From assembly GCA_965225945.1 (NCBI GenBank), contig CBDDBZ010000038.1, positions 224,001-288,000 on the forward strand: 64,000 bases of DNA. Reading direction: 5' to 3'. This document shows, piece after piece, positions 13,843 to 53,005 of the stretch. The number at the start of each line of letters is the position of its first letter. Position 1 is the stretch's first letter. Below the pieces are notes generated by a model, which had not been told where the DNA came from, ran no database searches, and was given only the letters and a program-made list of their open reading frames with translations. A program made the position numbers and the translations under genes. This DNA is from Alphaproteobacteria bacterium (GTDB taxonomy: Bacteria; Pseudomonadota; Alphaproteobacteria; GCA-2731375).

Positions 13843-13975
13843 CGCGTCGATCCCGTGAAGGCGGATGCGCTCCCCGGCGATCTCGATCAGTCGCCGTCGA
13901 TCACGCGGCCGGACCCGTGACGTCGGCCAGGGCGAGGGTCGGGAGGAGCGTGAGCACGAAGGCAAGGCGGAGCAT
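13843..13975 (-). pseudogene. Thermonuclease (SNase) 5' fragment F1
   Basis: MLRLAFVLTLLPTLALADVTG..IEIAGERIRLHGIDA with a frameshift; homologous to 28701, 33272 and 53073. Confidence 0.8.
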
Positions 13976-14029
13976 GGTGGGGAGCGTAGCAGGGCCGGCG
14001 TGGTGTGCATGCGATGGCCATTCGCCACG

Positions 14030-14125
14030 ATGTCGGCTTTCGCTCAGATCACGTCCGGTGTACCCCCAAGACTCACCTAAACATTAGCTGGCGCTAACGG
14101 GAGATTGTTGATCCGCAGCAGCCAT
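14030..14125 (-). repeat. Modular repeat unit S2
   Basis: Reverse complement: atggctgctgc-GGATCA|acaatctcccgttagcgccagCTAAT-gtttaggtgagtct-TGGGGGTA-caccggacgt-gatctgagc-gaaagccgacat. Confidence 0.8.
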
Positions 14126-15450: not shown

Positions 15451-15741
15451 GCAACGGCGAGTCAACCCCCAGCAATTGACCTCCATCGGATGCAGGTCCG
15501 GAATCGCCCCTCGATGGTAACTACCCAGGTCTGATTGGCCCGAGCGTTTGTATGTGAGGGATCGTGGGGGTCCGGGCTGGTAGCGGTGCCGGTGTTCTCA
15601 GAGGCGCAGTTGGGGGATTAGTTGCATCGGATCGGGATGCACCAGGGTCTGGAGGACGTTCCAGCCTTGCTTTCGTGAGTCGGACCCGATTTCCTTGGAC
15701 ACAGAATTGGCTTAATCGAAGTGTCCAAGGAGGACCGGAAC

Positions 15742-16149
15742 ATGACCGACAATTTTGAGAACAAAGTTGCTGTTGATGGGCCTGTGGTAAACGAGGGCGA
15801 GCTTGGCTCGTCCACGTTTTCCCCGGGCCAGGTTTCGCCGGCAGGCCCGCTGGGACTTGGCCAGCGGTGGACGGTGACGCGCAAGCGTGAGGTTGCCCTG
15901 CGGCTTTTGCGTGGCGAGCCGGTGGAACTTTTGTCGCGGCAGTTGGGCGTGGAGATTTTCCGGCTCGAGCAGTGGCGTGAGAAGGCGATCGCCGGGATCG
16001 ATGCCTCGCTCAAGGAACGCAAGGGCGATCCGGTAAAGGCGGAACTGGACATCATGAAGCGGATCGGGGAGTTGATCATGCAGGTGGAACTGCTGGAGGC
16101 CAAGACGGAGACGTCCGGCCCTTTGGGGCGGCGGAGGTCGCGGCGATGA
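15742..16149 (+). CDS. IS3-like OrfA (HTH)
   Basis: RWTVTRKREVALRLLRGE..LSRQLGV; overlaps orfB at ATGA. Confidence 0.8.
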   Translation: MTDNFENKVAVDGPVVNEGELGSSTFSPGQVSPAGPLGLGQRWTVTRKREVALRLLRGEPVELLSRQLGVEIFRLEQWREKAIAGIDASLKERKGDPVKAELDIMKRIGELIMQVELLEAKTETSGPLGRRRSRR

Positions 16150-17660
16150 GTGCCGCCACCTCTCCCGGCACGGGTTTGGCCTACGGCCTCCAGCGGGTCT
16201 GTGCGGCCTGGGGTTTTGCCCGTTCCTCGTTCCTTGCCTATCCGGTTATCACCCACACCCACTATATGTAGTGTGTCTCCTTGGACTGCAGGCAAGGGCC
16301 GGCGCAGGCCATTGAGGAGGCGATCCGGCTAATTCTTGATTGTTCTGAAAACCGAACCGGAGTTTAATTCACGTCACGTACTTAACATCGGGGGACGGAA
16401 CGGTGGCGACCAAGGGAAAAACGAAGAAACCCACGGCCAGACGGGAAGCTGTGATGAAACGACATCGTCTGAGCGATTGACGGCACTAGTCGAAGAAAGC
16501 GACGCGCTGGCACGAATCGTTGCGAAGAACCCGTCCGCGCCTGTTAGTCTCCTGCGCGTTTTTCGCAGCGAAGACGAAGCGACACGCAAGAACGTGATCC
16601 TCAATCCGTTTACTTCATATGACGTATTGAGCGAACTTGAAAACCAGTTCACAGAGCTATTTGTGAATAATCCGGCACTCGAATCCTACAATTCAATGAA
16701 GCTCTGTGAATATTCCATCGTCGTTCACCTCCTCAGATAAATTTCAATGAAGTGACGGTCCTTTATGCAACGTGGCGTTTTGCCTAAATCCGGTCTGTCG
16801 GCCTTGGGGTTTTGCCCGATTCCTCGTTCACGCCATGAAATCCCGGCAGCAGGCCACCGCTGAGCGCCCCCAGCAAAGCGCCGGGGACCAAGCCCTCGAT
16901 CTCGGACGAGGCTCTGCTGGTGGCCATCGAGGCCGACCTCGGCATCCCCCTGGGAGGGCGAGGGACCGCAAGGTCTGGGCTCGGCTTCGGGTCTGTCGTG
17001 GCGATCTGCGTGTTCCCCCTCCCGCAAGGCGGGTCGGCTCCGGGTGATGCGCGCGAGAACAACCTGCTCTCGCCCCATCGCTGCCGCCGCCGTGGCGGAA
17101 ATCCCCATGTCGGTGAGATCATCACCCATGCCCCCAACCTCATGTGGGGCACGGACGGCGTTCGGGTGTTCACGGTGGACGACGGCTGGGGCTGGATATT
17201 CACCGCCATCGAGCATTGGAACGCCGAGTGCGTCGGCTGGCATGTGTGCAAGCGAGGCGACCGCTTCGCCGCCCTTCAGCCGATCTCCATGGGGCTTGCG
17301 AGGCTGTATGCCTCGACCTCCGCCGGTGCGGCGCGGGGGCTGGCCTTGCGGATGGATCACGGCTCCCAGTATCTGTCGGACCACTTCACCAACCAGATCA
17401 AGTTCTGGGGCATCCAGCCGTCCTACGCCTTCGTCGAACAGCCCCAGACCAACGGCGTCGCCGAGAGGTTCAATCGCACGCTCAAGGAACAGATCATCCA
17501 TGGCCGCATCTACCGCAACATCGCGGAGCTGCGGAACGCCGTCCGCGGGTTCGTCGAACAGTACAATGCCCAGTGGATCGTGGAGAAGAACGGCTACCTG
17601 AGCCCCGCTCAAGCTCGTCAGGCGTGGCACACCGCGATGTCACTCAGGCCCGCCGCATGA
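16146..17660 (+). pseudogene. IS3-like OrfB, disrupted
   Basis: WGTD, DHGSQY and NGVAERFNRTLKE intact in the 3' half; the 5' half has a ~540-bp insert and many indels. Confidence 0.85.
16336..16740 (+). CDS. Leucine-rich-variant repeat-like fragment in an AT-richer insert
   Basis: Repeated VAKNPSAP / VILNPFT / VNNPAL units; lower GC than the flanks. Confidence 0.45.
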   Translation: MIVLKTEPEFNSRHVLNIGGRNGGDQGKNEETHGQTGSCDETTSSERLTALVEESDALARIVAKNPSAPVSLLRVFRSEDEATRKNVILNPFTSYDVLSELENQFTELFVNNPALESYNSMKLCEYSIVVHLLR

Positions 17661-19167
17661 GACAAACTTGTGTCCAAGGAACCGGGTGCGATACACCAGC
17701 CTTGCTTTCGGGCGGTGGCGATGACGGCACGCATTCTGGCGAAGTTGTAGGCACCCCTCTCGGAGCGGAAGCCACCGGAGATCTTCTGGCGCAGCTTGGC
17801 CATTCGGAGGTCACGTTCGGCCTCATTGTTCGTAAACGGCGTGCGCGGGTCGGTGAGGAATCGCAGGCATCCCTCCTTGTGCTTGCGGAGGCGGAGCGCG
17901 AGGTTATGACCGATGCGGCGTTTCTTTCGTCCGCGCTTGCCGGTCCGGAGCGGCGGCTGCGCCTCGTGGAAGGCGATGGCGTGGTCGAGGATGCGGGCCC
18001 AGGCCCGCGAGATCCGGGCCACCAGGGAGGCGGGCACGTCGCGGCCGTTCTCACGGGAGAAGCGGGTAGCCCTGTGTGCGCGCTCAAGGAGGCGGTGCAT
18101 GCTCTTTGCCCAGTCTTCCTTCTCGATGTCGATCAGGGCCTGGAGTTCGCGCAGGTGATGGGCGTTGCAGGCGCCGTGGCGCACGCCCTTGAGGGTGAAG
18201 TAGGCGGCGTAATCGTCATGGATGAGGATGCCTTCGAGGTCCTTTTCGACATCGCCGCGTCCCGCGCCGATGCGCAGGACGGTCAGGAATGGGGTGCACA
18301 GCACGTGGAGCCAGCGGGTACGGGCGGCGATCCGCAGGCCGGTTTCGTCGAGGTGCTTGACCGGGACCGCTGTGCGGATCACGTCTGCGACATGGGCGAG
18401 GAAGGGCTCGAAGCGCCTGGCGATTCGCCGGCCCATGGCGGTGATCGTGGCTGTGGAGATGGACACTGCGAAGAGGTCGCTCATGAGTTCGGCCAAGCGC
18501 TTCTCGGGAACGAACTGGGCGTACAGCAGGTAGCTCACCCAGGCGGTGATGCGTGGCCCGTACTGGACCGGGGCGGTCACGCCGTCCGGGAAGACGGCTC
18601 CTGTCACGGTGGCGCAGGCGCCGCAGAGGCAGCGATGGGCGCGGTGTTCGGTGACCTCCAGGGGGCGTGGCTCGGGCACATCGAAGACCTGTCGACAGAC
18701 GGGCGCGCGGTGACGGTCGGCGTCCGACAGCGGTGCGCCGCAGCCCGAACAGGCGGAGGGGTCATGATCCACAACATGGTCCGGGCTCTCGGTCCGCGCC
18801 AGCGTCGTTCCCTTGTGGCCCGGCTGGCCGCCGCTTGGCCTGCCGGACTTGCCGCGCTGGCTTCGGGTGCGCCTCTGGGTTCCGCTCTTCTTGCGCAGGC
18901 CGTCGCTGGCGGGCGGCTTGCTGCTGGTGGTGCTGTCAAGCGCCGCGCTCCGCTCGAGCTCGGCGATGCGGTCCCGCAGGGTCGCGTTCTCCCGCTCGAG
19001 CGCGGCATTCTCCCGGACGAGCGCCGTGGCCAGGCGCAACAGCCCCTGGCCCCATTCCCGGAAGGCCTTGACGACTGTGATTGCGAAGGATGAGGGGTCA
19101 AGAAGATCTTGCAGGCACGCGAAGGCCTCGTCATGGGCGGCGAGGTCCTCGTGCCAGCGCGACAGCG

Positions 19168-20086: not shown

Positions 20087-21853
20087 TTATTCCGGCAGTC
20101 CAGCTGCTCTCAAACCACCCAAAAGGCGCCGAACAATTGCGTTATTGCTGACCATCAAAAGTTCAGGAACGTGCTTAAGACGCAAATTGGGAGCAAACTG
20201 TCGGACTTCCTTCATGGCGTTGGCCGCTTCATCCAACCGTCCAGTCTGGCTCAGGATGTAGGCCTTCTGGAGCCAGGAGTGCAGATGCGTCGGTTCAGCC
20301 TCCAGGATCGCGTCAAACAGCGCCAACGCTTCGTCGAATTCAGAAAGCAGCAGCAGAACCCGCCCCAGACCATTCCTGTACCAGTTCGGACAAAAGGGGC
20401 TGAGCGAGATCGCGGCGCGAAAATGCTCCGCACCCTCGGCGAAGTCTCCAGCGCGGGTTAGTGCAAGCCCGAGATGAGCGCGTGCATGCGCGATACCCGG
20501 ATACAGCTCCACACTACGCCGTGCGATGGCCAGGGCTTCGAAGGCGCGATTCTGAGACCCCGCAACCACGTTACTCAATCCTAGTGCCCAGGGAAGGTTA
20601 TTGTCCAACTCCAGCGCGCGTTCGGCGCATTCCTTGGCGCGTGCGATCTTGGCTTCAGCATCGCCCGTATGGCCCACCCGGCCATCGTGCCAGAAGGTGT
20701 AACCGAGGGTAGCCCAGGCGTAGGCGTAATTCGGGTCGTGGGCCAATGCGTTCTCCGCCAGCGTGCGGGCCTCCAGATAATCCGAGGTATTCCAACGCTC
20801 GATCAGTTCCGTTGCTCTGACACAAAGCTGCCAGGCCTCGATATCCGTGGTACCGCTACCCCATAAACGGGCTTCCTCACCGTCGGTGAGCTTGATGCGT
20901 AACGCTGTGACAATCTCTTTGGTGATCTCGTCTTGAATATCGAAGAGATCATCGATGGTACGGTCGAAGCGTTCGGCCCATACATGGCTGCCGTCGCTCG
21001 CGTCGATCAGCTGCGCGGTGATGCGCAGTCGGTCACCACCTTTCCGGATGCTCCCTTCCATCACATAGCGGACGCCCAGCTCGTTGGCGACCCGGCGCAA
21101 GTCGATGGCTTGCCCCTTGTAGACGAAGGTTGAGTTGCGCGCGATGACGCGCAGTTGCGAAATCTTCGACAGCGCGGTGATGATTTCCTCAGCCATACCG
21201 TCGGCGAAGAACTCCTGCTCGCGATCGCCCGACATGTTGTCGAAGGACATTACTGCGATCGAGGGCTTGTCGGGCAATGGCAACGCGTCACCGCCGGCGA
21301 TTTCCTGAGCGGAGCCAGCGGGCGTTCCCAGGGGAGACCAGCGCCAGACCTGGACTGGCTTGGCGATGTTCTTGACCTCGTGGAGGCCGTCGTCGGTGAA
21401 CTGCGCGTCCGTCTTGCCCTGCACCTGCTCATGGACGTTGCCCGAGATCGCTATGTCGCCGGCCTCGGCAAGCGCCTCCAGACGTGCCGCGACATTGACG
21501 CCATCACCATGGATGTCGTCGCCATCGATGATGATGTCACCGAGATTGATGCCGACGCGGAAGAGCATCCGGCGATCATCGGGCTCGCCCGCGTTGCGTT
21601 CCGCCATTCCCTGCTGAACCTCGATACAGCACCTGACCGCGTCCAAAACACTGGCAAACTCCAAAAGGATTCCGTCGCCGGTCGTCTTGACGATACGGCC
21701 TCGGTGCTCGGCGACCTTGGGATCGACCAGTTCGCGCCGATGCGCCTTCAGCGCCGCCAGCGTGCCATCCTCGTCCACGCCCATGAGACGCGAATACCCG
21801 ACCACGTCGGCGGCGACGATGGCGGCCAGTCTGCGCTGTGTGCCCTCGGACAT
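20087..21853 (-). CDS. Class III adenylate/guanylate cyclase with TolB-like and TPR domains
   Basis: RRLAAIVAADVVGYS, KTTGDG, GDGVNVAARLE, PDKPSIAV and TPR repeats. Confidence 0.93.
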   Translation of the reverse strand: MSEGTQRRLAAIVAADVVGYSRLMGVDEDGTLAALKAHRRELVDPKVAEHRGRIVKTTGDGILLEFASVLDAVRCCIEVQQGMAERNAGEPDDRRMLFRVGINLGDIIIDGDDIHGDGVNVAARLEALAEAGDIAISGNVHEQVQGKTDAQFTDDGLHEVKNIAKPVQVWRWSPLGTPAGSAQEIAGGDALPLPDKPSIAVMSFDNMSGDREQEFFADGMAEEIITALSKISQLRVIARNSTFVYKGQAIDLRRVANELGVRYVMEGSIRKGGDRLRITAQLIDASDGSHVWAERFDRTIDDLFDIQDEITKEIVTALRIKLTDGEEARLWGSGTTDIEAWQLCVRATELIERWNTSDYLEARTLAENALAHDPNYAYAWATLGYTFWHDGRVGHTGDAEAKIARAKECAERALELDNNLPWALGLSNVVAGSQNRAFEALAIARRSVELYPGIAHARAHLGLALTRAGDFAEGAEHFRAAISLSPFCPNWYRNGLGRVLLLLSEFDEALALFDAILEAEPTHLHSWLQKAYILSQTGRLDEAANAMKEVRQFAPNLRLKHVPELLMVSNNAIVRRLLGGLRAAGLPE

Positions 21854-21920
21854 GGGTGAAGTCTAACTGAGCTGGCCAACCGCAGGAACTGCGACCTCGA
21901 ACGAAAAGGCGTGTCGGTGC

Positions 21921-21945
21921 ATTAGGGATATTGAATGGAAGGTGT
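21921..21945 (-). repeat. Right half of repeat S4 (target continuation after the Int-IS91 element)
   Basis: Reverse complement acaccttccattcaatatccCTAAT matches the 25-26-nt post-CA module. Confidence 0.65.
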
Positions 21946-22268
21946 TGTGCAGGTTTCTCGGATGCCTTGCCGGCATAGGGAGTGAGGCGCGGTGTTTGCC
22001 GGCGTCCGAGAAGCGCCAAGGCACGAAATCGCGGGATACAGGCGTCGCTATGGGGATTTGAGCGTGGCGTCGATGGTGGTGTCGTCTGGACGACCCGCAT
22101 ATGGGGCGTGAGGCGCCATAAGGAGATCGTCGAGCGCGGTGAAGCGTTGCCGAGGGGGGCACGAGCGGGGCCGGGGCGGCCAACGATGCCGCCGTTTTCG
22201 GTGTCCCGGGCGAGCGAAGTCGAGCGCCGAGGCTCGGCGGGGAAGGTGGCTGATGTTTTGGGTCGGTG

Positions 22269-23511
22269 TCATGAGCTATCGATGGCCTTCGGCGGTGAAC
22301 GGGCCTTTGGTTGACAGCCGGCCTCGAAGACCTCGACGACGATCATGGGACCGCCACAACGGGGGCACGGTCGGGCGCCCTGGCGTTGGTCCTCGGGAGG
22401 CTCCGAGGCCTCTTCCTCGCTGGCGTCGGGCGCCGGTGGTCCGCCGAGCAGTTCGCGAGCGCGTTTTATGTTGGCGGCGCGGTTGCCGTTTGCAAAGAGG
22501 CCGTAGTGTCGGATGCGGTGGAAGCCCTTGGGCAGGACGTGCATGAGGAAGCGGCGGATGAACTCCGCGACATCGAGGGTCATGGTCCCGTAGCGCTCGG
22601 CGCCGTCGCGGCGGTAGTCCTTGTAGGTGAAGGTAACGGCGCCGTTGTCGAGGCGGAGCAAGCGGCGGTTGGAGATGGCGACGCGGTGGGTGTATCGGGC
22701 GAGGTAGGCGAGCACGGCCTCGGGCCCGCCGAAGGGGCGCTTGGCATAGACGACCCATTCACTCTTGCGCATGGGCGCGAGGAAGGTGCCGAACGCCGCC
22801 GGTTCGGCGAGGCCCGCGTGCTCGGCGAAGAACTTCAGACGTTCGGTCTCGTGGGCGGCGGCGAGCTTCTCGATGAAGAGCCGGCGGAAGAGGCGCGAGA
22901 GCACGCGGACGGGCAAGAAGAAGCCGGGCCGGCAGGCAATCCATTCCGTGCCGTCCGGAGAGACCCCGCCGCCGGGCACGATCATGTGGATGTGTGGTGA
23001 GGCGCCGGTGCGCCATCGGTCCGAGCACGGCGCCGTAAAGCGTCATGGCCGAGCCCCAGGTGTGGAGCACGGCGGTGATGCCGATCTTGGCGCCGAGGTG
23101 CTTTGGATCGGCGGCGATGGTGATCATGGTCTCGGCGCTCGCCTTGAACAGGATGTCGTAGACGACGGCCTTGTTCTGGTACGCGATGTCGGCGATCGCC
23201 GCCGGCAGGGTGAAGACGAGATGGTAGTAGGGGACGGGCAGTAGTTCGGCCTCGCGCTCGGCCAACCAGTCCCGGGCCGCCGCCCCCTGGCACTTGGGGC
23301 AATGGCGGTTGCGGCACGAGTTGTAGGCGATCTGGGTGTGCTCGCAGTCCTCGCAGGCCAAGACGTGCCCGCCGAGCGCGGCCGTGCGGCAGCGCTCGAT
23401 GGCGCTCATGACCTTCAGCTGTTGCAAGCTCACGTGGCCGGCATTGGCCCGACGCCAGGCGGGGCCGAAGTCGCGGAAGATATCCGCGACCTCCAACCCA
23501 TGGGCTGTCAC
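22269..23511 (-). pseudogene. IS91-family (Y2/HUH) transposase, frameshifted
   Basis: YNSCRNRHCPKC Zn-binding domain, HTWG, HIH, YLARY and HRIRHYG motifs; a ~37-nt hairpin insert (23001-23034) shifts the frame just before HUH. Confidence 0.88.
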
Positions 23512-23524
23512 GACCCGGCGGCGC

Positions 23525-24436
23525 TTACCCCGACGGCTTGGCCTTCTTCCGCTTCTTGCCACCGGGCTTGGACAAGAGATCCAGCGGACTCTCGATGGCG
23601 GCGATGGCGCCGGTCGCGACCCGGGTATAGCGCGCCGTGGTGTCGAGCTTGTCGTGGCCCAAAAGCGCTTGGATGTAGCGAATGTCGGTGCCGCGCTCGA
23701 GCAAGTGGGTGGCGAAGGAATGCCGCAACGAGTGCGGCGTCACGTGCTTGGTGATCCCGGCGGCGGCCACCGCCTCCTCGAACAACCGGCTGAACTGCCG
23801 GGTCGTGGCGTGCCGCCCCGCCTCGCGACCGGGGAAGAGCCAGCGCTGTTGCGCAGGCACGCCCGCGTCGTGGCGGGTCGGGCGGGCCCGCCACCATTGC
23901 CTGAGCAACGCCAGCAGTCCCTTCGACAGCATCACGTTACGGTCCTTGCGGCCCTTGCCCTGGACGATACGGATGATGCCTTGGGCGCTGTCGATGTCGC
24001 CGACGCGCAAGCGCACCACCTCGCCCGCTCGCATGCCACAGCCATAGGCGAGCGAGAGCAGCGCGCGGGTCTTCAGGTTCCGGGCCATCACCAGGAGACG
24101 CTTGGCCTCGTCCTGGCTCATCACCTTCGGCAGCCTTTGCGGCTCGCGGATGTGGAAGATCTCCGCCGCGAGATCGAGCCGTCGCAAGGTCACGCGGAAC
24201 AGAAAACGGAGCCCGGTCATGGTCCGGTTGCGGTTGCAGATGCTCATCCCGCTCTCCGCCAGATGAACTTGGAAGCGGCGGACGTCCTCGGCCACGGCGG
24301 TATCGGGCGAGCCATCCAGAAACACGGCAAAGCGCTCGCAGCCGCGGAGGTGGCCCTTCTGCGTGCCCGCCACCAGCTTGCGGGCGTTCATGTCCTCGAT
24401 CATGCGCTGGCGCAATGGGGTCATCGTCGTCGTCAC
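23525..24436 (-). CDS. Tyrosine integrase (integron-integrase-like N-terminus, lacking the IntI insert)
   Basis: YGCGMRAGE, GKGRKDR, HSLRHSFATHLLE and LLGH..TTARY; R-K-H-R-H-Y intact. Confidence 0.93.
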   Translation of the reverse strand: MTTTMTPLRQRMIEDMNARKLVAGTQKGHLRGCERFAVFLDGSPDTAVAEDVRRFQVHLAESGMSICNRNRTMTGLRFLFRVTLRRLDLAAEIFHIREPQRLPKVMSQDEAKRLLVMARNLKTRALLSLAYGCGMRAGEVVRLRVGDIDSAQGIIRIVQGKGRKDRNVMLSKGLLALLRQWWRARPTRHDAGVPAQQRWLFPGREAGRHATTRQFSRLFEEAVAAAGITKHVTPHSLRHSFATHLLERGTDIRYIQALLGHDKLDTTARYTRVATGAIAAIESPLDLLSKPGGKKRKKAKPSG

Positions 24437-24580
24437 GGAGATGCTCCTTCCTGAGTTGAGGTCGACGAGACCTCAATGATCAGGAACGAGCGCTCGAAGT
24501 GTTATCGATGAAATCCACGGCGGTGGCTGGGCGCGCCATGACCCCTCACCCACGAAATATCGCGTAGCGATTTAGTGCTA

Positions 24581-24645
24581 TGGCTACGAATAGCCGTCCC
24601 GGGCACCCTGGCCCGACGGGGAATGTACCCCCGATAGCCGACATT
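24581..24645 (-). repeat. Left half of repeat S4
   Basis: Reverse complement: aatgtcggctatc-GGGGGTA-cattccccgtc..gacggctattcg-TAGCCA| followed by the element. Confidence 0.8.
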
Positions 24646-24666
24646 GGTGGCCCTCGCCGCGTGAGC

Positions 24667-24765
24667 TCACCCAACCACCCCACGCCCGGCAGATGCCTGT
24701 AGAGCGTCGACGGCGACACCTGCAGCCGCTCCGCCACCTCCGCCACGGAAATGCCGTTCAGCTTC
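24667..24765 (-). pseudogene. Resolvase-type HTH fragment
   Basis: ISVAEVAERLQVSPSTLYRHL. Confidence 0.55.
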
Positions 24766-24991
24766 GAGAAGCCCGCCACGCTCACGGCTCATCCGGCTTT
24801 TGTGGGCGCCGTGATCCATGACCTCGTTGGCCCGCCGGCGCGGTAGGCCTGAAAGCCTGTCTGGAGATTGTCCTTGACCCCGCTCTTTCACTTTGGAAGC
24901 TCTAGCGGGTCGGGCAAGCGCTCGACAGTATCAGCAGGATCCGGAAATCCGCCTGGCTCGCGCCGTCGAGGGCGGCAATGAAATGGAGGCA

Positions 24992-25681
24992 ATGATGCAC
25001 AAGATCGACATCCCCCAAAAGGTCATCGATTCCTGCATTCGCTTGCGCGGCCGCCGGCATGCGCTCGAGTCGATTGAGCCCCAGCGTCTCGCCATGATCG
25101 TCGTCGACATGCAGAACAGTTGGGTCGAGCCCGGTCTCTCGCCCCTGGAGATTCCGATGACCCGCGAAATCATACCGAACATCAACAGGCTGGCGGCGGC
25201 TGTGCGCGCCGCGGGGGGTATCGTCGCCTGGACCCAGTCGGTTTTCCCCGAGGACTGGACACGGCACGTCTATGAACATTTCGGAACGCCCGAATGGCGC
25301 GACCGCGTCATCGCCGATACCCAACCCGGCGCGCACGGCCACAAGATCGCAAACCAGATGGACGTTGGGCCCGAGGACGTGATCGTCGTGAAGAACCGCC
25401 CGAGCGCCTTCATTCAGGGGGCGTCGAACCTCGAGGCCGAGTTGCGCCGGCGTGGCCGGGACACCTTGATCATTACCGGCACGCTGACCAATGCTTGCTG
25501 TGAATCGAGCGCCCGCGACGCCGCCGCGCTTGGCTTCGTCAGCATCATGGTGTCGGATGCCATGGCGACCCGGACGGACGAGGAGCACAATGCGACGTTG
25601 ATCAACGTCATGCAGCTGACCGCCGACGTCAGATCGATGGATGAGGTCCTGGGCCTGCTCGAGGCCAGCACGACACGATAG
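24992..25681 (+). CDS. Isochorismatase / cysteine hydrolase family protein
   Basis: VVDMQN, KNRPSAF and TGTLTNACCESSARDA motifs. Confidence 0.9.
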   Translation: MMHKIDIPQKVIDSCIRLRGRRHALESIEPQRLAMIVVDMQNSWVEPGLSPLEIPMTREIIPNINRLAAAVRAAGGIVAWTQSVFPEDWTRHVYEHFGTPEWRDRVIADTQPGAHGHKIANQMDVGPEDVIVVKNRPSAFIQGASNLEAELRRRGRDTLIITGTLTNACCESSARDAAALGFVSIMVSDAMATRTDEEHNATLINVMQLTADVRSMDEVLGLLEASTTR

Positions 25682-26143
25682 CCGGGCGTGCCCATAGAGC
25701 TCCTATAATCGGCCACGTCGGCGGCCGGGATCGCGGCGAGGCGGCGCTCCATGCTTGGTCCCCCTTAGTTGGGAGAGTAGCGCCTGAACCATGGCAATCA
25801 TCTCGCGGTCCGCGGAGGACCAGAGCCGCGCTGCTTCCATCACGCACGGCTCGAGGACGCCGTACATCAGCCCTTCGTGGTAGAGCGGAGCGTGCACCAG
25901 AGCGCGGTGCCGAAAGTACTTCAGCTCGTACTCGCGATTGACCAATGATGGATCTGCGGTCGTCACATCTTCGATGTAGAGCGCAACCGGACTGCGCAGG
26001 GCTTCCGCGAACATCGGGTCGTTCTCGACCAGCGACGGAGGCTCTTTTTGCCAGCCGCGATCTTCTCTGGCCAATGCGTATTCCGGCTTACGCTCCCACG
26101 CATGCGTCTGTATCGCACCCGGTTCCTTGGACACAAGTTTGTC

Positions 26144-27055
26144 TCATGCGGCGGGCCTGAGTGACATCGCGGTGTGCCACGCCTGACGAGCTTGAGCGGG
26201 GCTCAGGTAGCCGTTCTTCTCCACGATCCACTGGGCATTGTACTGTTCGACGAACCCGCGGACGGCGTTCCGCAGCTCCGCGATGTTGCGGTAGATGCGG
26301 CCATGGATGATCTGTTCCTTGAGCGTGCGATTGAACCTCTCGGCGACGCCGTTGGTCTGGGGCTGTTCGACGAAGGCGTAGGACGGCTGGATGCCCCAGA
26401 ACTTGATCTGGTTGGTGAAGTGGTCCGACAGATACTGGGAGCCGTGATCCATCCGCAAGGCCAGCCCCCGCGCCGCACCGGCGGAGGTCGAGGCATACAG
26501 CCTCGCAAGCCCCATGGAGATCGGCTGAAGGGCGGCGAAGCGGTCGCCTCGCTTGCACACATGCCAGCCGACGCACTCGGCGTTCCAATGCTCGATGGCG
26601 GTGAATATCCAGCCCCAGCCGTCGTCCACCGTGAACACCCGAACGCCGTCCGTGCCCCACATGAGGTTGGGGGCATGGGTGATGATCTCACCGACATGGG
26701 GATTTCCGCCACGGCGGCGGCAGCGATGGGGCGAGAGCAGGTTGTTCTCGCGCATCACCCGGAGCACCCGCTTGCGGGAAACACGGATGCCACGACAGAC
26801 CCGAAGCCGAGCCCAGACCTTGCGGTGTCCCTCGCCCTCCCAGGGGGATGCCTCCAGGTCGGCCTCGATGGCCACCAGCAGAGCCTCGTCCGAGATCGAG
26901 GGCTTCGGTCCCCGGCGCTTTGCTGGTGGGCGCTCAGCGGTGGCCTGCTGCCGGGATTTCATGGCGTAGAACGAGGAACGGGCAAAACCCCAGGCCGCAC
27001 AGACCCGCTGGAGGCCGTAGGCCAAACCCGTGCCGGGAGAGGTGGCGGCACTCAT
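26144..27055 (-). CDS. IS3-like OrfB (DDE integrase core)
   Basis: GHRKVWARL, WGTD, DHGSQY and AERFNRTLKE motifs. Confidence 0.9.
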   Translation of the reverse strand: MSAATSPGTGLAYGLQRVCAAWGFARSSFYAMKSRQQATAERPPAKRRGPKPSISDEALLVAIEADLEASPWEGEGHRKVWARLRVCRGIRVSRKRVLRVMRENNLLSPHRCRRRGGNPHVGEIITHAPNLMWGTDGVRVFTVDDGWGWIFTAIEHWNAECVGWHVCKRGDRFAALQPISMGLARLYASTSAGAARGLALRMDHGSQYLSDHFTNQIKFWGIQPSYAFVEQPQTNGVAERFNRTLKEQIIHGRIYRNIAELRNAVRGFVEQYNAQWIVEKNGYLSPAQARQAWHTAMSLRPAA

Positions 27056-27462
27056 CGCCGCGACCTCCGCCGCCCCAAAGGGCCGGACGTCTCCGTCTTG
27101 GCCTCCAGCAGTTCCACCTGCATGATCAACTCCCCGATCCGCTTCATGGCGATGTCCAGTTCCGCCTTTACCGGATCGCCCTTGCGTTCCTTGAGCGAGG
27201 CATCGATCCCGGCGATCGCCTTCTCACGCCACTGCTCGAGCCGGAAAATCTCCACGCCCAACTGCCGCGACAAAAGTTCCACCGGCTCGCCACGCAAAAG
27301 CCGCAGGGCAACCTCACGCTTGCGCGTCACCGTCCACCGCTGGCCAAGTCCCAGCGGGCCTGCCGGCGAAACCTGGCCCGGGGAAAACGTGGACGAGCCA
27401 AGCTCGCCCTCGTTTACCACAGGCCCATCAACAGCAACTTTGTTCTCAAAATTGTCGGTCAT
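27052..27462 (-). CDS. IS3-like OrfA
   Basis: HTH; ATGA overlap with orfB. Confidence 0.82.
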   Translation of the reverse strand: MTDNFENKVAVDGPVVNEGELGSSTFSPGQVSPAGPLGLGQRWTVTRKREVALRLLRGEPVELLSRQLGVEIFRLEQWREKAIAGIDASLKERKGDPVKAELDIAMKRIGELIMQVELLEAKTETSGPLGRRRSRR

Positions 27463-27727
27463 GTTCCGGTCCTCCTTGGACACTTCGATTAAACCAATTC
27501 TGTGTCCAAGGAACCGGCCCGGTTCATCGGGTCCGACTCACCCACGCATGCGTCGCCCGTGAGCGACGGGTGTGAGGATCACGAAGGAACAACACACACA
27601 CCGGTCGCAATTGAGCGCCTCGCACAGCACCGGCATCAAGTCGCCAAGCAAGTTGTCAGGCGTAGCGTCGCTGTTCAGTAGAGTATCCAAATCAACTGTC
27701 ATGTCGGCTAGGCTGGCCAATGCACAA

Positions 27728-28700: not shown

Positions 28701-28934
28701 TCACTGTCCGCACCAAACGAGGAAGCGCAGGGTGGCGCTCGCCTCGGCCCCGCATGGCCACGTCACCCCGCGCCGCTCGCAAGCCTGCCGTCCCTCGGGC
28801 GCGTCTATGCCGTGAAGGCGGATGCGCTCGGCCCCGACTTCGATGGTGTCGCCGTCGACCACGCCGGCCGGGCCGGAGACGTCGGCCAGGGCGAGGGCGG
28901 GGAAGAGGGCGAGCAGGAAGGCGAGGCGGAACAT
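28701..28934 (-). pseudogene. Thermonuclease 5' fragment F2
   Basis: Signal peptide + VVDGDTI..IRLHGIDAPE..QAC..WPCG; truncated. Confidence 0.85.
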
Positions 28935-28937
28935 GGT

Positions 28938-32584: not shown

Positions 32585-32722
32585 GTAGTGGCGGGAGATT
32601 TCGCCGGGGTGGTCAGCCAAATTTCGTTCCGAACGTCCTTAGGAGAGAAGCCCTAAAAAGCGCGCGCGCGCGAGGACATCGCCTTTTGGGGTTTTCTTCC
32701 AGCGATTTAGCCCGATCTAGCC

Positions 32723-33430: not shown

Positions 33431-33529
33431 CCGAATGTCGGCTTCGCTCGGATCACGTCCGATGTACCCCCAATATTCCCCGTAATATTAGCTGATGCCG
33501 AACGGAGAATCATGACCCGACCCGGACAT
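33431..33529 (-). repeat. Modular repeat unit S5
   Basis: Reverse complement: atgtccgggtc-GGGTCA|tgattctccgttcggcatcagCTAAT-attacggggaatat-TGGGGGTA-catcggacgt-gatccgagc-gaagccgacattcgg. Confidence 0.85.
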
Positions 33530-42705: not shown

Positions 42706-42795
42706 AACTTCCGCAGCTGGGGGTATATTCCCCGTCGAGGCGACACGGCCGCTTAGGCGATTGGTAGCCAGCATTTTCCGTTAGCGGAATCTAAT
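42706..42795 (+). repeat. Modular repeat unit S8
   Basis: aacttccgcagc-TGGGGGTA-tattccccgtc..ggccgcttaggcgattgg-TAGCCA|gcattttccgttagcggaatCTAAT. Confidence 0.85.
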
Positions 42796-46270: not shown

Positions 46271-46291
46271 CCGAATGTCTCTTGTGGGTCA
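46271..46291 (+). repeat. Left half of repeat S9
   Basis: ccgaatgtctcttgt-GGGTCA| immediately before the Int-IS91 element. Confidence 0.75.
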
Positions 46292-46435
46292 AGGCACTAA
46301 ATCGCTACGCGATATTTCGTGGGTGAGGGGTCATGGCGCGCCCAGCCACCGCCGTGGATTTCATCGATAACACTTCGAGCGCTCGTTCCTGATCATTGAG
46401 GTCTCGTCGACCTCAACTCAGGAAGGAGCATCTCC

Positions 46436-47347
46436 ATGACGACGACGATGACCCCATTGCGCCAGCGCATGATCGAGGACATGAACGCCCGCAAGCTGGT
46501 GGCGGGCACGCAGAAGGGCCACCTCCGCGGCTGCGAGCGCTTTGCCGTGTTTCTGGATGGCTCGCCCGATACCGCCGTGGCCGAGGACGTCCGCCGCTTC
46601 CAAGTTCATCTGGCGGAGAGCGGGATGAGCATCTGCAACCGCAACCGGACCATGACCGGGCTCCGTTTTCTGTTCCGCGTGACCTTGCGACGGCTCGATC
46701 TCGCGGCGGAGATCTTCCACATCCGCGAGCCGCAAAGGCTGCCGAAGGTGATGAGCCAGGACGAGGCCAAGCGTCTCCTGGTGATGGCCCGGAACCTGAA
46801 GACCCGCGCGCTGCTCTCGCTCGCCTATGGCTGTGGCATGCGAGCGGGCGAGGTGGTGCGCTTGCGCGTCGGCGACATCGACAGCGCCCAAGGCATCATC
46901 CGTATCGTCCAGGGCAAGGGCCGCAAGGACCGTAACGTGATGCTGTCGAAGGGACTGCTGGCGTTGCTCAGGCAATGGTGGCGGGCCCGCCCGACCCGCC
47001 ACGACGCGGGCGTGCCTGCGCAACAGCGCTGGCTCTTCCCCGGTCGCGAGGCGGGGCGGCACGCCACGACCCGGCAGTTCAGCCGGTTGTTCGAGGAGGC
47101 GGTGGCCGCCGCCGGGATCACCAAGCACGTGACGCCGCACTCGTTGCGGCATTCCTTCGCCACCCACTTGCTCGAGCGCGGCACCGACATTCGCTACATC
47201 CAAGCGCTTTTGGGCCACGACAAGCTCGACACCACGGCGCGTTACACGCGGGTCGCGACCGGCACCATCGCCGCCATCGAGAGCCCGCTGGATCTCTTGT
47301 CCAAGCCCGGTGGCAAGAAGCGGAAGAAGGCCAAGCCGTCGGGGTAG
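46436..47347 (+). CDS. Tyrosine integrase
   Basis: Identical to 23525-24436 apart from an A/T change near the C-terminus. Confidence 0.93.
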   Translation: MTTTMTPLRQRMIEDMNARKLVAGTQKGHLRGCERFAVFLDGSPDTAVAEDVRRFQVHLAESGMSICNRNRTMTGLRFLFRVTLRRLDLAAEIFHIREPQRLPKVMSQDEAKRLLVMARNLKTRALLSLAYGCGMRAGEVVRLRVGDIDSAQGIIRIVQGKGRKDRNVMLSKGLLALLRQWWRARPTRHDAGVPAQQRWLFPGREAGRHATTRQFSRLFEEAVAAAGITKHVTPHSLRHSFATHLLERGTDIRYIQALLGHDKLDTTARYTRVATGTIAAIESPLDLLSKPGGKKRKKAKPSG

Positions 47348-47723
47348 CGCCGCCGGGTCGTGACAGCCCATGGGTTGGAGGTCGCGGAAATCTTCCGCGA
47401 CTTCGGCCCCGCCTGGCGTCGGGCCAATGCCGGCCACGTGAGCTTGCAACAGCTGAAGGTCATGAGCGCCATCGAGCGCTGCCGCACGGCCGCGCTCGGC
47501 GGGCACGTCTTGGCCTGCGATGTCAATCGGCGTTGAACATTGACCCCCTATCGGCGTGCAATGTTGACCCCTTTGGGGATGCACGGCGGAGGTCGTACAG
47601 GTAGTCCATAGGAGGGGCCCGCGCGCGGGCCGACGCGCCCACCACGCGGCTGGCGGCGGACCGCGCGTGGGAGGTTCCTGTGGGCCCACCTGGGTGACCG
47701 GGCGGCAGGTGGATCGGTTGCCT

Positions 47724-48452
47724 TTAGGACCGATTCTTGAAGCGCCAGGAGTCGTTTCCGGTCTCGATGATCTCGCAGTGGTGCGTCAGACGATCGAGGA
47801 GCGCGGTGGTCATCTTGGCGTCGCCGAAGACGGACGGCCATTCGCCGAAGGTCAGGTTGGTGGTGACGATGATCGAGGTGCGCTCGTAGAGCCGGCTGAC
47901 GAGGTGGAACAGCAGCTGGCCTCCGGTTTGGGCGAAGGGCAGGTAGCCGAGCTCGTCGAGGATGACGAGGTCGCGCCGGGCCAGCTGATCGGCGAGCCGG
48001 CCCTGGCGGCCGGCGCGGGCTTCGGCCTCGAGCCGGTTGACCAGGTCGACGACGTTGAAGAAGCGGCCCCGGGCGCCATCGCGGATGCAGGCCCGCGCGA
48101 TGGCGACGGCGAGATGGCTCTTGCCGGTGCCGGTGCCGCCGATCAGCACGGCGTTGCGCTGGTTGGCCAGGAAGCCGCCGACCGCCAACTCGCGGACCAG
48201 CGGCTCGTTGACCGGGGTGTCGGTGAAGTCGAAGTCGGCCAGCTCCTTGGCCAGCGGCAGCTTGGCGCCACTCATCTGGTACTTGATGGATCGCGCCTGC
48301 TTGTCGGCGATCTCGGCCTTCAACAGCTCGCCGATGATTCGCTGCATCGGATGCTGGCGCTTGAGGCCGTCGGCGAGCACCTCGTCGAACGCGTCGCGCA
48401 TGCCGGCGAGCTTGAGTGCGGCCATCATCTCCAGGACCTCATGGCGCTCCAT
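47724..48452 (-). CDS. istB: IstB
   Basis: Identical protein to copy 1. Confidence 0.95.
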
Positions 48453-49950
48453 GGCCGACCCCCCTCAAGCGGTCGTAGCGGGTGCAATCGGCCACCGGCT
48501 CAAAGCGAAGACGCAGGTTCGCGGGCGTCGGGATCGGCGCCGTCTCGGACGGCTGGCGCCGACGATTGAGGATGTTGAGCACGACGTCGGCGCTGCACAC
48601 GCCGCCAGCGAGCGCCTCGGCACAGGCGGCCTCCACCGCCGCCAGCCCATCCGCCAGCACGGCGGTGAGGATCTCGACCATCTGCCTGTCGCCGTCGTCG
48701 TGGCCGGCGAGCCGGACGCGCACGCGACCCAGGGCGCCGGGCAGCGCCCAGTCCTTGAACGGCGCGCCGTTACGAAGCGCACCGGGCTTCCTCGCCAGCA
48801 CGGGCACGTAGTGCCACGGGTCATAGACGGTCTGGTCGCGGCCGAAGCGCCGGGCATGCTCGGCGACGATCTCGCCGTCCTGGCGGATGACGATGCGATC
48901 GGCGTAGGCATGGACCTCGACCGGACGGCCGACGGCGCGCGCCGCCACGCTGTACTTGTTGCTGTCGAAGCGCACCAGGCAGGTCTTCGACACCGACGCC
49001 GGGACCGCGTGGAAGCCGTCGAACGGCCCGCGATAGCCGACCAGGGACGGACGCTCGTCCTCGAACACCTGCCAGACAGTCCTGTCCTTGAACACCGGGT
49101 GGGGATGACGCCGGGCGTAGGCGACGCACTGGTCCAAGAGCCAGGCGTTGAGCTCGTCGTAGGTCTTGAAGCGCAGCCGCGGGGTGAAGAACCGACCGCG
49201 GATGATCCCGACCTGGTTCTCGACCTGCCCCTTCTCCCATCCCGCTCCCGGCGTGCATGCTGTCGGTTCGACCAGGTAGTGGCCACACATCTGCACGAAG
49301 CGCCGGTTGAACGCGCGCTCCTTGCCGATGAGGACGGTCTGCACCGCCGTCTTCATGTTGTCGTAGATGCCTCGCCGGCAGGCACCCTGGAACAGCCGGA
49401 ATGCCCGGTCGTGGGCGTCGAACACCATCTCCTGGCTCTCGCGCGGATAAGCGCGGACGAAGAACATTCGGCTGTGGCACAGCCGGACGTGCGCGACCTT
49501 GACCTTGGTCGTCACCCCCGCCAGCACCACGTACTCGTGGCTCCAGTCGAACTGATAGGCCTCGCCCGGCGAGAACACCAACGGCACATAGGTCTGCGCC
49601 GTCGATGCCGAACGGCGCCACCGCCACGCCTTGGCGTAGCGCCGCACCGCGTCGTAGCCGCCGCCATAGCCCAGACCCTCGAGGGCTTCGGAGATCCGTA
49701 GCAGCGTCAGCCGCTCCCGCTTCGACTTGGTCTCGTTGGCCTCCAGCATCCGCTCCAGCTCGGCCGTCCACGGCCCCAGCTTCGGCATCGGCTGGACCCG
49801 CCGGTCGTAGGTGAACGCCGTCGCCTGCGAACGGATCACCTTGCGCACCGTGTTGCGCGAGACCTTCACGTCCCGCACGATCTCCTTGATCGGCTTCCCC
49901 TTGACGAAATACTCCCGCCGGATCCGCGCTATCGTCTCCACGACCAACAT
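48439..49950 (-). CDS. istA: IstA
   Basis: Near-identical to copy 1. Confidence 0.95.
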
Positions 49951-51478
49951 CCCCCACCACCTCGTCCGCCCAAAAACGAGGTGACTTGGACTAGCCAGGC
50001 TCAGGGGGTCAAATTTGGACGCCGATCACCCCTCAACAGGGGTCAACTTTGCACGCCGTTCCACAGCCTGCGAGGACTGCGAGCACACCCAGATCGCCTA
50101 CAACTCGTGCCGCAACCGCCATTGCCCCAAGTGCCAGGGGGCGGCGGCCCGGGACTGGTTGGCCGAGCGCGAGGCCGAACTACTGCCCGTCCCCTACTAC
50201 CATCTCGTCTTCACCCTGCCGGCGGCGATCGCCGACATCGCGTACCAGAACAAGGCCGTCGTCTACGACATCCTGTTCAAGGCGAGCGCCGAGACCATGA
50301 TCACCATCGCCGCCGATCCAAAGCACCTCGGCGCCAAGATCGGCATCACCGCCGTGCTCCACACCTGGGGCTCGGCCATGACGCTTTACGGCGCCGTGCT
50401 CGGACCGATGGCGCACCGGCGCCTCACCACACATCCACATGATCGTGCCCGGCGGCGGGGTCTCTCCGGACGGCACGGAATGGATTGCCTGCCGGCCCGG
50501 CTTCTTCTTGCCCGTCCGCGTGCTCTCGCGCCTCTTCCGCCGGCTCTTCATCGAGAAGCTCGCCGCCGCCCACGAGACCGAACGTCTGAAGTTCTTCGCC
50601 GAGCACGCGGGCCTCGCCGAACCGGCGGCGTTCGGCACCTTCCTCGCGCCCATGCGCAAGAGTGAATGGGTCGTCTATGCCAAGCGCCCCTTCGGCGGGC
50701 CCGAGGCCGTGCTCGCCTACCTCGCCCGATACACCCACCGCGTCGCCATCTCCAACCGCCGCTTGCTCCGCCTCGACAACGGCGCCGTTACCTTCACCTA
50801 CAAGGACTACCGCCGCGACGGCGCCGAGCGCTACGGGACCATGACCCTCGATGTCGCGGAGTTCATCCGCCGCTTCCTCATGCACGTCCTGCCCAAGGGC
50901 TTCCACCGCATCCGACACTACGGCCTCTTTGCAAACGGCAACCGCGCCGCCAACATAAAACGCGCTCGCGAACTGCTCGGCGGACCACCGGCGCCCGACG
51001 CCAGCGAGGAAGAGGCCTCGGAGCCTCCCGAGGACCAACGCCAGGGCGCCCGACCGTGCCCCCGTTGTGGCGGTCCCATGATCGTCGTCGAGGTCTTCGA
51101 GGCCGGCTGTCAACCAAAGGCCCGTTCACCGCCGAAGGCCATCGATAGCTCATGACACCGACCCAAAACATCAGCCACCTTCCCCGCCGAGCCTCGGCGC
51201 TCGACTTCGCTCGCCCGGGACACCGAAAACGGCGGCATCGTTGGCCGCCCCGGCCCCGCTCGTGCCCCCCTCGGCAACGCTTCACCGCGCTCGACGATCT
51301 CCTTATGGCGCCTCACGCCCCATATGCGGGTCGTCCAGACGACACCACCATCGACGCCACGCTCAAATCCCCATAGCGACGCCTGTATCCCGCGATTTCG
51401 TGCCTTGGCGCTTCTCGGACGCCGGCAAACACCGCGCCTCACTCCCTATGCCGGCAAGGCATCCGAGAAACCTGCACA

Positions 51479-51504
51479 TGATTCTCCGTCAAGCATCTTC
51501 TAAT
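51479..51504 (+). repeat. Right half of repeat S9 (continues at 53006-53020)
   Basis: tgattctccgtcaagcatcttCTAAT is 21/26 identical to the S5 module. Confidence 0.75.
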
Positions 51505-53005
51505 GGAGCGTCCGGACCTGGGCGTGTTCCGGACGTCGATTCGGCGAAAGATGGTGTATCGCGGCGGCTGTGCCTGATGATATCAGGATGAGCGCAGCCC
51601 CTTCACGCATGATCGTTGAATCGGGGTCGCCCTGACCTCGAACATCGAGAAAGGAGCGACGACGATGGCACATTTTGTAGGTCTGGATGTTTCGGTGAAG
51701 GAGACGGCGGTATGCGTCGTCGACGAGGTTGGCGAGGTGGTGTTGGAGCGGAAAGTACCGACCGAGCCGGATGACATCGTCACGCTGCTGACCTCGATCG
51801 GCGAGGCCTATGGCCGGGTCGGGATCGAAGCCGGTCCGCTCTCGCAATGGCTGGTCAACGGTCTGGCTGCTACCGGGCTGCCGGTTGTCTGCGTCGAGAC
51901 TCGGCACATGCAAGCGCTGCTCAAGGGGCAGCAGATCAACAAGAGCGACCGCAACGATGCACGCGGCATCGCCCAGATGATGCGGGTCGGGCTGTTCAAG
52001 CCGGTGCATGTGAAGACCCTGGTTGTCCAGGAGCAGCGGATGCTGCTGACCAGCCGCAAGCTGCTCCAGAGAAAACTGCTCGACGTCGAGAACGATCTAC
52101 GCGGGACGCTGCGCAACTTCGGTCTCGAGGTGGGCAAGGTCAGCACCCGCGGGTACGAGGCGCGGATCCGCGAGCTGGTCGAAGATTTTCCGAAGTTGGC
52201 CGCTATCGTGGAACCGCTGCTCACCGTCCGGCGAGTGATGCGCCAGCAATTCGCGGTCCTCCACAAAATGGTGCTCGACACGGTCCGCCATGACCCGGTC
52301 TGCCGACGGCTCATGACGGCACCCGGCGTCGGCGTGGTCGTCGCGCTGACCTACCGGGCTACCATCGATCAGCCGCAGCGCTTCGTTCACTCCAGGGCGG
52401 TCGGCGCGCATGTCGGCCTGACGCCGAAGCGCTTCCAGTCCGGCGAGATCGACTATGATGGTTGCGTGTCCAAGTGCGGCGACAGCATGCTCCGCACGAT
52501 GCTGTACGAGGCCGCGCAGTCCCTCCTCACCCACGGCCGGAAATGGTCCTGGCTGAAGGCGTGGGGCATGCGAGTGGCCCAGCGACGTGGCATGCGCCGT
52601 GCCATCGTCGCCGTCGCGAGGCGCCTGGCCGTAGTTCTGCACCGCATGTGGGTCGACGGCACCGAGTTCCGCTGGAGCAACGGCCCTGCTGACGCCGTCA
52701 AGGCGGATTGAACCTTCGACTGTACTGACAAGGAGATCAACGAGTTCTGCTTAGGCAGAGAGATGTCCTCACGGGGACGACGGGTGGGGTGAGTTCGTAA
52801 TGTCGGTAGACCCTGCCGCTGACCGGCGGCAAGGACGCGCGAAAGATTGAACCGCCTCATCCTCTGATCCCATCATGAGGTGGCCACGCGCCAACCTCGA
52901 AGAGAAGCAAGAGCCCCGTGCGGCAACATCCGCCAGTGCGGAACGACGTGAAGAAGGAATATGGCATGACGTAACCAGAAAGGGCTTGACCGAGGACGCG
53001 ATAGA
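51496..53005 (+). mobile_element. IS110-family (IS1111-group-like) element; left boundary uncertain by ~10 bp
   Basis: Transposase plus ~290-nt downstream non-coding region; weak subterminal IR (gcgtcc/ggacgc); TTGACC near the right end. Confidence 0.8.
51665..52711 (+). CDS. IS110-family DEDD transposase
   Basis: VGLDVS, GIEAG, KSDRNDA, PGVG and GLTPKRFQSGE motifs. Confidence 0.95.
   Translation: MAHFVGLDVSVKETAVCVVDEVGEVVLERKVPTEPDDIVTLLTSIGEAYGRVGIEAGPLSQWLVNGLAATGLPVVCVETRHMQALLKGQQINKSDRNDARGIAQMMRVGLFKPVHVKTLVVQEQRMLLTSRKLLQRKLLDVENDLRGTLRNFGLEVGKVSTRGYEARIRELVEDFPKLAAIVEPLLTVRRVMRQQFAVLHKMVLDTVRHDPVCRRLMTAPGVGVVVALTYRATIDQPQRFVHSRAVGAHVGLTPKRFQSGEIDYDGCVSKCGDSMLRTMLYEAAQSLLTHGRKWSWLKAWGMRVAQRRGMRRAIVAVARRLAVVLHRMWVDGTEFRWSNGPADAVKAD

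Follow-up and report, generated by a model that had tools for sequence, protein, structure and literature searches.

The window analysed here is the whole stretch of 64,000 nucleotides (nt) at positions 224001-288000 of contig C38, from the 6.27-Mb, 39-contig genome assembly of an Alphaproteobacteria bacterium (labelled G000). It contains two copies of an IS91-type insertion sequence (IS) that carries a tyrosine recombinase gene as well as a transposase gene. Copy 1 (21946..24578, minus strand) is 2,633 nt long, with left end GCACTAAATCGCTACGCGAT.. and right end ..GAGAAACCTGCACA. The recombinase gene lies upstream (23525..24436, minus strand) and encodes a 303-amino-acid (aa) protein, hereafter the integrase, matching Pfam PF00589 (1.4e-44) and PF13495. 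It is followed by the gene for an IS91-family HUH two-tyrosine transposase (22269..23562, minus strand; Pfam PF14319, 1.3e-34, and PF04986, 1e-53). Copy 2 (46294..51478, plus strand) is split by a 2,545-nt IS21-family IS encoding IstA and IstB (47521..50065, plus strand), which sits in its transposase gene. Altogether the genome holds four near-identical copies of the element (99.2-100% identity).

A 37-nt insertion breaks the transposase gene into two frames (22759-23562 and 22269-22985); alignment with four intact relatives places the insertion at ~22995-23041, directly ahead of the HUH motif. This insertion is matched exactly in copies 1-3 (the two in the window and one on contig C35); copy 4 was not matched in this way, but its length is likewise 2,633 nt. 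As its transposase gene is frameshifted, the element is a non-autonomous derivative. The integrase, in contrast, is intact in all four genomic copies, with 0-2 substitutions. Contigs from runs X3 (depth ~110) and X2 have 10 nt in place of the 47 nt at window 22995-23041, which restores the transposase frame; these contigs are ~92% alike to the window and thus derive from a related element.

Both ends of the element are recognizable as conserved modules. The left-end module (24559..24578, minus strand) consists of GCACTAA followed by the hairpin ATCGC-tac-GCGAT and is kept across genomes. The right-end module (21946..22040, minus strand) comprises a conserved ..CGCGATTTCGTGCCTTGGCGCTT.. block, a hairpin and CCGAGAAACCTGCACA, and is kept across loci, although its fold has a z of -0.12, so that the structure is not significant by itself. 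Folds of the window's own element ends and repeat modules were likewise not significant. The end sequences are not inverted copies of each other and show no terminal inverted repeats.

Both copies in the window are inserted in members of a dispersed repeat family, for which nhmmer detected 38 half-A and 33 half-B modules genome-wide. Half A ends in the hexamer TAGCCA, while half B begins directly after GGGTCA and consists of N21-CTAAT and a conserved block; at one locus the modules occur in tandem, half B then half A. The window has eight modules, spaced ~1-10 kb apart and in both orientations. No Rfam family was found in the window at gathering scores, and the empty site gave only chance-level matches. 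At copy 1, half A (24581..24656, minus strand; nhmmer E 1.3e-19) ends in TAGCCA (24581-24586), and the target CA is separated from the conserved left end by the dinucleotide TA (24579..24580, minus strand). The right flank (21921..21945, minus strand) is N20 and CTAAT, which in intact sites come directly after the hexamer. At copy 2 the target (46286..46293, plus strand) is GGGTCA (46286-46291) with an extra AG (46292-46293), and half B continues on the right (51479..51546, plus strand) as N21, CTAAT (51500-51504) and then ggagcgtccggacc.. Read on the minus strand, copy 1 is ..attcgTAGCCA-ta-, the element (GCACTAAATC...CCTGCACA), acaccttccattcaatatcc-CTAAT; copy 2 reads ..cttgtGGGTCA-ag-, the same element ends, tgattctccgtcaagcatctt-CTAAT.

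Intact sites do not contain the two extra nt. In the window there is an empty site of the copy 2 type (33444..33518, minus strand), with GGGTCA (33513-33518), N21, CTAAT (33487-33491) and the remainder of half B; here GGGTCA is directly followed by tgattctccgt (33502-33518, minus strand). An intact site of the other type (42719..42795, plus strand) has half A ending in TAGCCA (42765-42770), N20 and CTAAT. About 22 of 33 regex matches in the genome were judged to be intact repeat members by reading their flanks. Among intact GGGTCA sites, N21 precedes CTAAT in 11 of 13 (one has N22 and one N23), and intact TAGCCA sites (n = 5) read TAGCCA-N20/21-CTAAT, compared with 2+20 nt at copy 1 and 2+21 nt at copy 2. 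The three closest paralogues of the copy 2 site run from GGGTC(A/G) directly into the right-flank sequence, base-for-base, without the two nt. These intact paralogous sites show that the extra dinucleotide (NN) is real. The empty sites compared are paralogues and not orthologous alleles.

An orthologous empty allele was looked for in two places. It was not found among the contigs of four runs covering window 20500-26000; of those listed, none joins across the element and none contains a circle junction. Their coverage includes the right junction, at 21737-21974 (X1, X2 and X6), and breaks off at the left end (24388-24578; X1 and X6). When 31 relatives of a second genome, G004, were searched with one filled locus and its flanks, no orthologous empty site was recognizable, as these flanks belong to multi-copy gene families.

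All four copies in the genome follow a hexamer ending in CA (TAGCCA or GGGTCA) and two variable nt (TA or AG). The left junctions of copies 1-4 are TAGCCA-ta, GGGTCA-ag, TAGCCA-ta and TAGCCA-ag, and the first right-flank bases are ac, tg, ag and aa, so that the +1/+2 bases are unrelated between copies. An apparent fifth copy, on contig C29, was rejected because a solo left-end remnant had been wrongly paired with a spurious right end; the remnant (C29, 100546) stands after TAGCCA-ag and is followed by unrelated genes. An earlier note, made on the window alone, had quoted the junctions of both copies and the empty site, and these were confirmed exactly. Its proposal that insertion occurs at one point of the repeat, with two variable extra nt, is supported, insertion being specific in orientation as well, and it was also right that the element has neither terminal inverted repeats nor a target site duplication and that its right end mimics the target.

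The same junction recurs in relatives. In 21 of 22 left ends of a sister family in G000 (ISF; ~2.6 kb, ~75% nt identity to the element, both genes intact), CA at -4/-3 is separated from the conserved end by two variable nt; two of the 22 left flanks (reading CACA) are group II intron junctions and not true flanks. The variable pairs are AA, TA, AC, CA, AT and TG. Where both ISF flanks lie in the repeat, the order is G(G/A)GTCA-NN-ISF-N21-CT(A/G)AT in three cases, with ~N20 in a fourth. Right ends of ISF read ..CGCTTAACA in 19 of 23.

A scan of species-representative genomes gave 441 loci encoding a relative of the integrase, of which 79 were fetched. Both ends, GCACTAAATCGC.. on the left and ..AAACCTGCACA on the right, are kept across the scanned genomes, and in the loci printed out the right end finishes ..CTGCACA, bar a few interrupted or variant ones. 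The fetched loci and the G000 contigs, including extra copies from four genomes, provided 69 distinct paired sites, two of which are pairing artefacts (the C29 remnant and one row of locus L033). Their left-flank consensus is G(54) T/G G(59) C/T(60/7) C(67) A(66) N N and their right-flank consensus n n A(51) G C(48) G G(59) A C A T(48), with no consensus at +1/+2 and a consensus from +3 on. In other genomes the commonest context is GTGCCA followed by NN, and in five candidate empty sites, chosen from 15 regex matches, the right-flank register comes straight after GTGCCA. In G004 the motif ATGTC-N6-GYGCCA occurs 32 times, compared with three for the reversed control, and at least six of these matches are, by coordinates, directly left of an element copy. 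With 21 of 22 ISF left ends and 66-67 of the 69 paired sites showing this junction, the CA+NN pattern is far beyond chance. A separate observation is that an ISF-like IS91-integrase element on Bradyrhizobium guangdongense plasmid NZ_CP030052.1 (L123; 873.4-876.1 kb) has the left flank ..AGGATT and not CA+NN; it represents another sub-lineage, and other sub-lineages may thus use other flank words.

Insertion is in one orientation, directly 3' of a short motif ending in CA and without target duplication. The earlier note had named unrelated or short IS91-like targets as the outcome contrary to its reading, and the flanks of other copies revealed this in part: CA+NN recurred (A in 66 and C in 67 of the 69 paired sites), but nine sites in genome G001 have only YCA in common and three ISF copies (C37_56645, C30_123891 and C24_83094) lie in non-repeat DNA. 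From the sites sharing only YCA, the target is a short IS91-style word, (G)YCA, with a context preference, and not a dedicated, integron-like recombination core. The element's own right end (..GCACA) also finishes in CA and so resembles the target (..GYCA). In several ISF copies tandem right-end modules are joined as ACA+TA, ACA+TC or ACA+TT, which suggests that the right end can itself act as a target. Such extra modules, each ~337-365 nt of the ISF right end, come in tandem behind full ISF copies (C38 202868-203231; C39 252598-253299; C31 near 11154-11440), and the full ISF element has an internal degenerate right-end-like block just ahead of its right-end module.

Preferred sites are in dispersed repeats resembling repetitive extragenic palindromic (REP) sequences, and often form an imperfect palindrome. 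The right-flank consensus nnAGCGGACAT complements GTCCGCT on the left, and because left and right flanks are often complementary, insertion falls in a loop of ~10 nt. At least seven of nine positions are complementary in 15 of 65 sites, compared with a maximum of 14 in 200 partner shuffles, and the flank hairpin of locus L007 has a z of -4.0.

The dinucleotide itself is neither a target duplication nor a stable part of the element. NN is identical to the two bases that open the right flank in 10 of the 69 paired sites, with 7.0 expected (P = 0.15). Position by position, the first bases agree in 27 (24.2 expected) and the second bases in 21 (18.6 expected), which is chance level. A weak signal is that the second base of NN and the base opening the right flank are identical in 32 of 69 (21.2 expected; P = 0.0024, uncorrected for six comparisons). 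At least nine ISF copies without an informative difference over 1,745 nt have AA, TA, TG, AC, AT and CA, and five G001 copies only 1-6 nt apart have GG, AT, AC, CG and GG. NN is thus not stably inherited. Nor is it random, since in G004 it is AA in six of eight paired copies and AT in the other two.

Both genes of the element are maintained in its relatives. The positions of an R..K..HxxR..H..Y set are among the invariant columns of 31 integrase sequences, the catalytic assignment being a reading of the alignment, and in 30 transposase relatives the HUH and YxxxY motifs are kept, as read from the consensus. From the relatives, 33 pairs were extracted at distinct loci where both genes are intact. 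As judged from this invariance and from the intact pairs, the integrase is under selection as an enzyme; it seems competent for catalysis and so has some role. Its best solved relatives are Xer proteins and IntI4. In the alignment with IntI4 (2a3v), residues 181-212 of the integrase face residues 180-244 of the IntI4 chain and the integrase is ~33 residues shorter. The alignment breaks at these ~33 extra IntI4 residues, indicating that the IntI insert is absent, as the earlier note had supposed when it described the protein as IntI-like. The element is a member of the integrase-carrying IS91 subgroup, a known element type. According to Smyshlyaev et al. (bioRxiv 10.1101/542381), the recombinases of IS91 elements form an 'Integron-like' group without the IntI insertion. 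The element also has the gene pair of this subgroup, in the same order. Distant matches were found in 412 plasmid records, and in most of the 15 listed the match is under a gene pair of 'IS91 family transposase' and integrase; the earlier note had rightly called elements with an upstream tyrosine recombinase known. In comparison with ISF, the transposase of the element has 85.5% and 73.7% aa identity in its two halves, but the integrase only 49%.

Much of this is familiar from IS91. As described in PMC13181058, IS91 makes no target duplication, and a short word in the flank at one end resembles the word that closes the element at the other. The IS91 transposase cuts 3' of each of these two words. 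With IS91, IS801 and IS1294 the element shares the transposase domains (zinc-binding N-terminus and two-tyrosine HUH), the lack of terminal inverted repeats and target duplications, subterminal hairpins, insertion in one orientation beside a short flank word and an end that finishes in a related word (here ..CACA or ..AACA). However, the word ends in CA here, (G)YCA, and is not CTTG or GTTC, and unlike all three the element has a tyrosine recombinase gene and a strong preference for REP-like palindromes. Two further differences concern IS91 itself. In IS91 it is the end downstream of tnpA (oriIS) that adjoins the flank word (PMC13181058), whereas in the element the word adjoins the end upstream of int and tnpA on the coding strand. 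The element also has exactly two hypervariable nt at the left junction, and the passages on IS91 in PMC13181058 describe no added bases and state no precise junction. Among other single-strand systems, IS200/IS605 elements and REP-associated Y1 transposases are alike in single-strand HUH chemistry, in a target word resembling the end word and in their links to palindromic repeats. Their transposase is of the Y1 class, while that of the element is of the two-tyrosine IS91 type. IS200/IS605 and REP systems are not known to add extra bases or to have a recombinase partner. REP systems combine palindromes of high copy number with one copy of a Y1 transposase gene. The repeats associated with the element are of moderate copy number (38+33 modules in G000; 32 motif matches versus three for the control in G004).

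Single-strand HUH transposition as in IS91 fits the choice of site, the single orientation, the absence of duplication and a right end finishing in CA, and is, on balance, preferred as the core explanation. Site choice and strand transfer would follow IS91/HUH single-strand logic. The repeats would serve as hot spots because they offer the target word in a favourable, probably single-stranded, hairpin context. As their own transposase gene is broken, the four G000 copies were probably moved in trans by the intact, closely related transposase of ISF. The dinucleotide changes at nearly every transposition.

It is at the dinucleotide that the HUH account needs an addition, since cuts at fixed positions cannot give an NN that differs between identical copies, and a further step is required. 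The most plausible of the candidate sources, if only tentatively so, is that the two strands are joined at points 2 nt apart, for which a second activity, for instance that of the integrase, would be required. A possible but weaker candidate is fill-in at the joint, either untemplated or error-prone; carry-over from donor flanks is doubtful, and some other origin is improbable.

Several observations weigh against IS91-type HUH transposition. Fixed HUH cuts predict an unchanged NN, which the G001 and ISF copies contradict, and the core model is therefore incomplete at NN. In G000, moreover, NN tracks two sub-lineages, copies 1 and 3 (c1/c3) having TA and a GTG start codon and copies 2 and 4 (c2/c4) AG and an ATG start codon; it is thus not re-drawn at every event. 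The flank word is at the end upstream of the genes, while in IS91 it is at the end downstream of tnpA, which would mean movement of the other strand or a polarity unlike that of IS91. Left flanks alone fold no better overall than shuffled ones (mean z -0.71; 9 of 65 below -2). A broken transposase and an intact integrase in four of four copies fit integrase-driven movement equally well. Finally, all the empty sites compared are paralogues rather than orthologous pre-insertion alleles.

An alternative is that the IntI-like recombinase alone recombines a circle junction with a 'core' in the repeat, making the element a self-mobile cassette in which NN is a coupling sequence in the style of Tn916 or Tn554. 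It could draw on the intact integrase and frameshifted transposase gene in the G000 copies, on the invariance in 31 sequences of the positions read as catalytic, and on the fact that the closest solved relatives, Xer and IntI4, include enzymes acting on folded single strands. A hypervariable junction dinucleotide is hard to explain through HUH chemistry alone, and heterologous-overlap recombination typically leaves a variable junction, which does not have to match the target. Yet relatives whose transposase gene is intact (33 distinct intact pairs) show this signature too, and sites with only YCA in common exist. Known overlaps of tyrosine recombinases are 6-8 nt long, so that an overlap of 2 nt would be unlike them. 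The coupling sequences of Tn916, CTnDOT and Tn554 are 5-7 nt long, are made by tyrosine recombinases alone and can be traced to the donor flank; their variable bases, like those here, need not match the target and leave no true target duplication, but the element has only 2 nt and donor tracing gave no link beyond chance in what is a low-power test. In that test NN matched the right-flank dinucleotide of another copy 19 times, with 20.4 expected (P = 0.67), so that the coupling sequence proposed in the earlier note gained no support. For a few rare NN types (AG in G000; TC and CG in G001) the dinucleotide is present in the right flank of another copy in that genome, but the proposed G001 donors are 10-84 nt different from their supposed offspring, and nearest-neighbour copies differ in NN. 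The cassette reading fared no better, since the sites form no array but are dispersed, with eight in the window ~1-10 kb apart in both orientations and 38+33 in the genome. Integron cassettes (IntI, attC and attI) have a related recombinase and sites that can be folded single strands; the element differs in lacking the IntI insert, an identified attC-type site and an array, and in having its own transposase in the unit. Movement by the integrase alone is therefore considered unlikely.

Similarly low weight is given to a pathway that combines both chemistries. Here the HUH enzyme would nick and join one strand 3' of CA, while the tyrosine recombinase or a second transposase active site would process the other strand 2 nt away, the element and the target each giving an unmatched 2-nt overlap, one per junction. 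Such a pathway would explain why exactly two nt are added, why both NN and the first two right-flank bases vary, and why both genes are strictly conserved, as well as why the passages on IS91 in PMC13181058 mention no such extra bases. Against it, identity by position between NN and the target dinucleotide is at chance (27 versus 24.2 and 21 versus 18.6), and the common AA of G004 is always on the left (six of eight paired copies), indicating that the two sides are not equivalent. We also know of no precedent for such a two-enzyme reaction. Its most specific form is slightly less probable again: on one strand the HUH transposase would act in a hairpin loop, cutting and joining 3' of CA, and two bases away the tyrosine recombinase would act on the complementary strand, with an unmatched 2-nt overlap as the outcome, seen as the hypervariable dinucleotide.

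That NN was already in the target, with insertion 2 nt after CA in rarer, longer repeat alleles and nothing added, is very improbable: although the spacer varies slightly among intact sites (N20-N23) and all the empty sites compared are paralogues, in none of the ~22 intact sites of the family is the hexamer followed at once by two additional bases, the closest paralogues of the copy 2 site align base-for-base without them, the five candidate empty sites elsewhere keep the right-flank register right after GTGCCA, and every occupied site would need to be a rare allele. IS91-type single-strand transposition, with a further step at the dinucleotide, thus remains the preferred account.

Other mobile DNA has inserted in and around these elements. 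The 2.5-kb IS21-family IS (IstA with rve and Mu-transposase C-terminal domains; IstB) is present in three identical copies in the window, at 8491-11031 (minus strand), 47521-50065 (plus strand) and 58603-61148 (plus strand). A perfect 103-nt tandem duplication (8314-8519) adjoins the end of one IS21-family copy. Outside the window, a group II intron is located exactly at the IS91-integrase left-end junction in G000 (C9 30133-32069 and C38 near 209781), just after the left-end hairpin and with its reverse-transcriptase open reading frame on the opposite strand. A like intron end adjoins the left end in three loci of other genomes (L052, L057 and L060), and this looks like homing into the IS end. 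Many ISF copies also have a ~1-kb IS at one internal position in the transposase gene (for example, C38 124549-126964), and the same ~1-kb IS is present elsewhere in G000 with 90-99% identity.

On either side of the copy 1 region there are inverted segmental duplicates (15691-17695 and 26109-27513) of 645, 363 and 180 nt with 100% identity. Paralogous gene starts encoding similar signal-peptide-like N-termini occur at 13906-14018, 28865-28937, 33309-33421 and 53003-53137, and at least two (near 14040-14111 and 33444-33518) have a half-B module ~100 nt upstream. For the 230-aa product encoded at 32717-33409, Pfam gave no match.

The literature searched contained no description of the target rule, the extra dinucleotide or the REP-like hot spots; ISfinder, TnPedia and supplements lay outside that search and may record the rule. 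As far as that literature goes, the CA+NN junction rule and the REP-like hot spots are new here, while the element type is already known. With the rule, annotators can set element ends and locate hot spots among REP-like repeats. Elements of the IS91 type that have an upstream recombinase are common, being found at 441 loci in species-representative genomes and in 412 distantly matching plasmid records, and to our knowledge the role of the recombinase in them has never been explained. The signature of a CA word and exactly two bases that change between otherwise identical copies is a direct read-out that separates the two enzymes in a transposition assay. Should the reaction using both enzymes prove true, the element would be a hybrid of rolling-circle and site-specific systems, undescribed for any mobile element.

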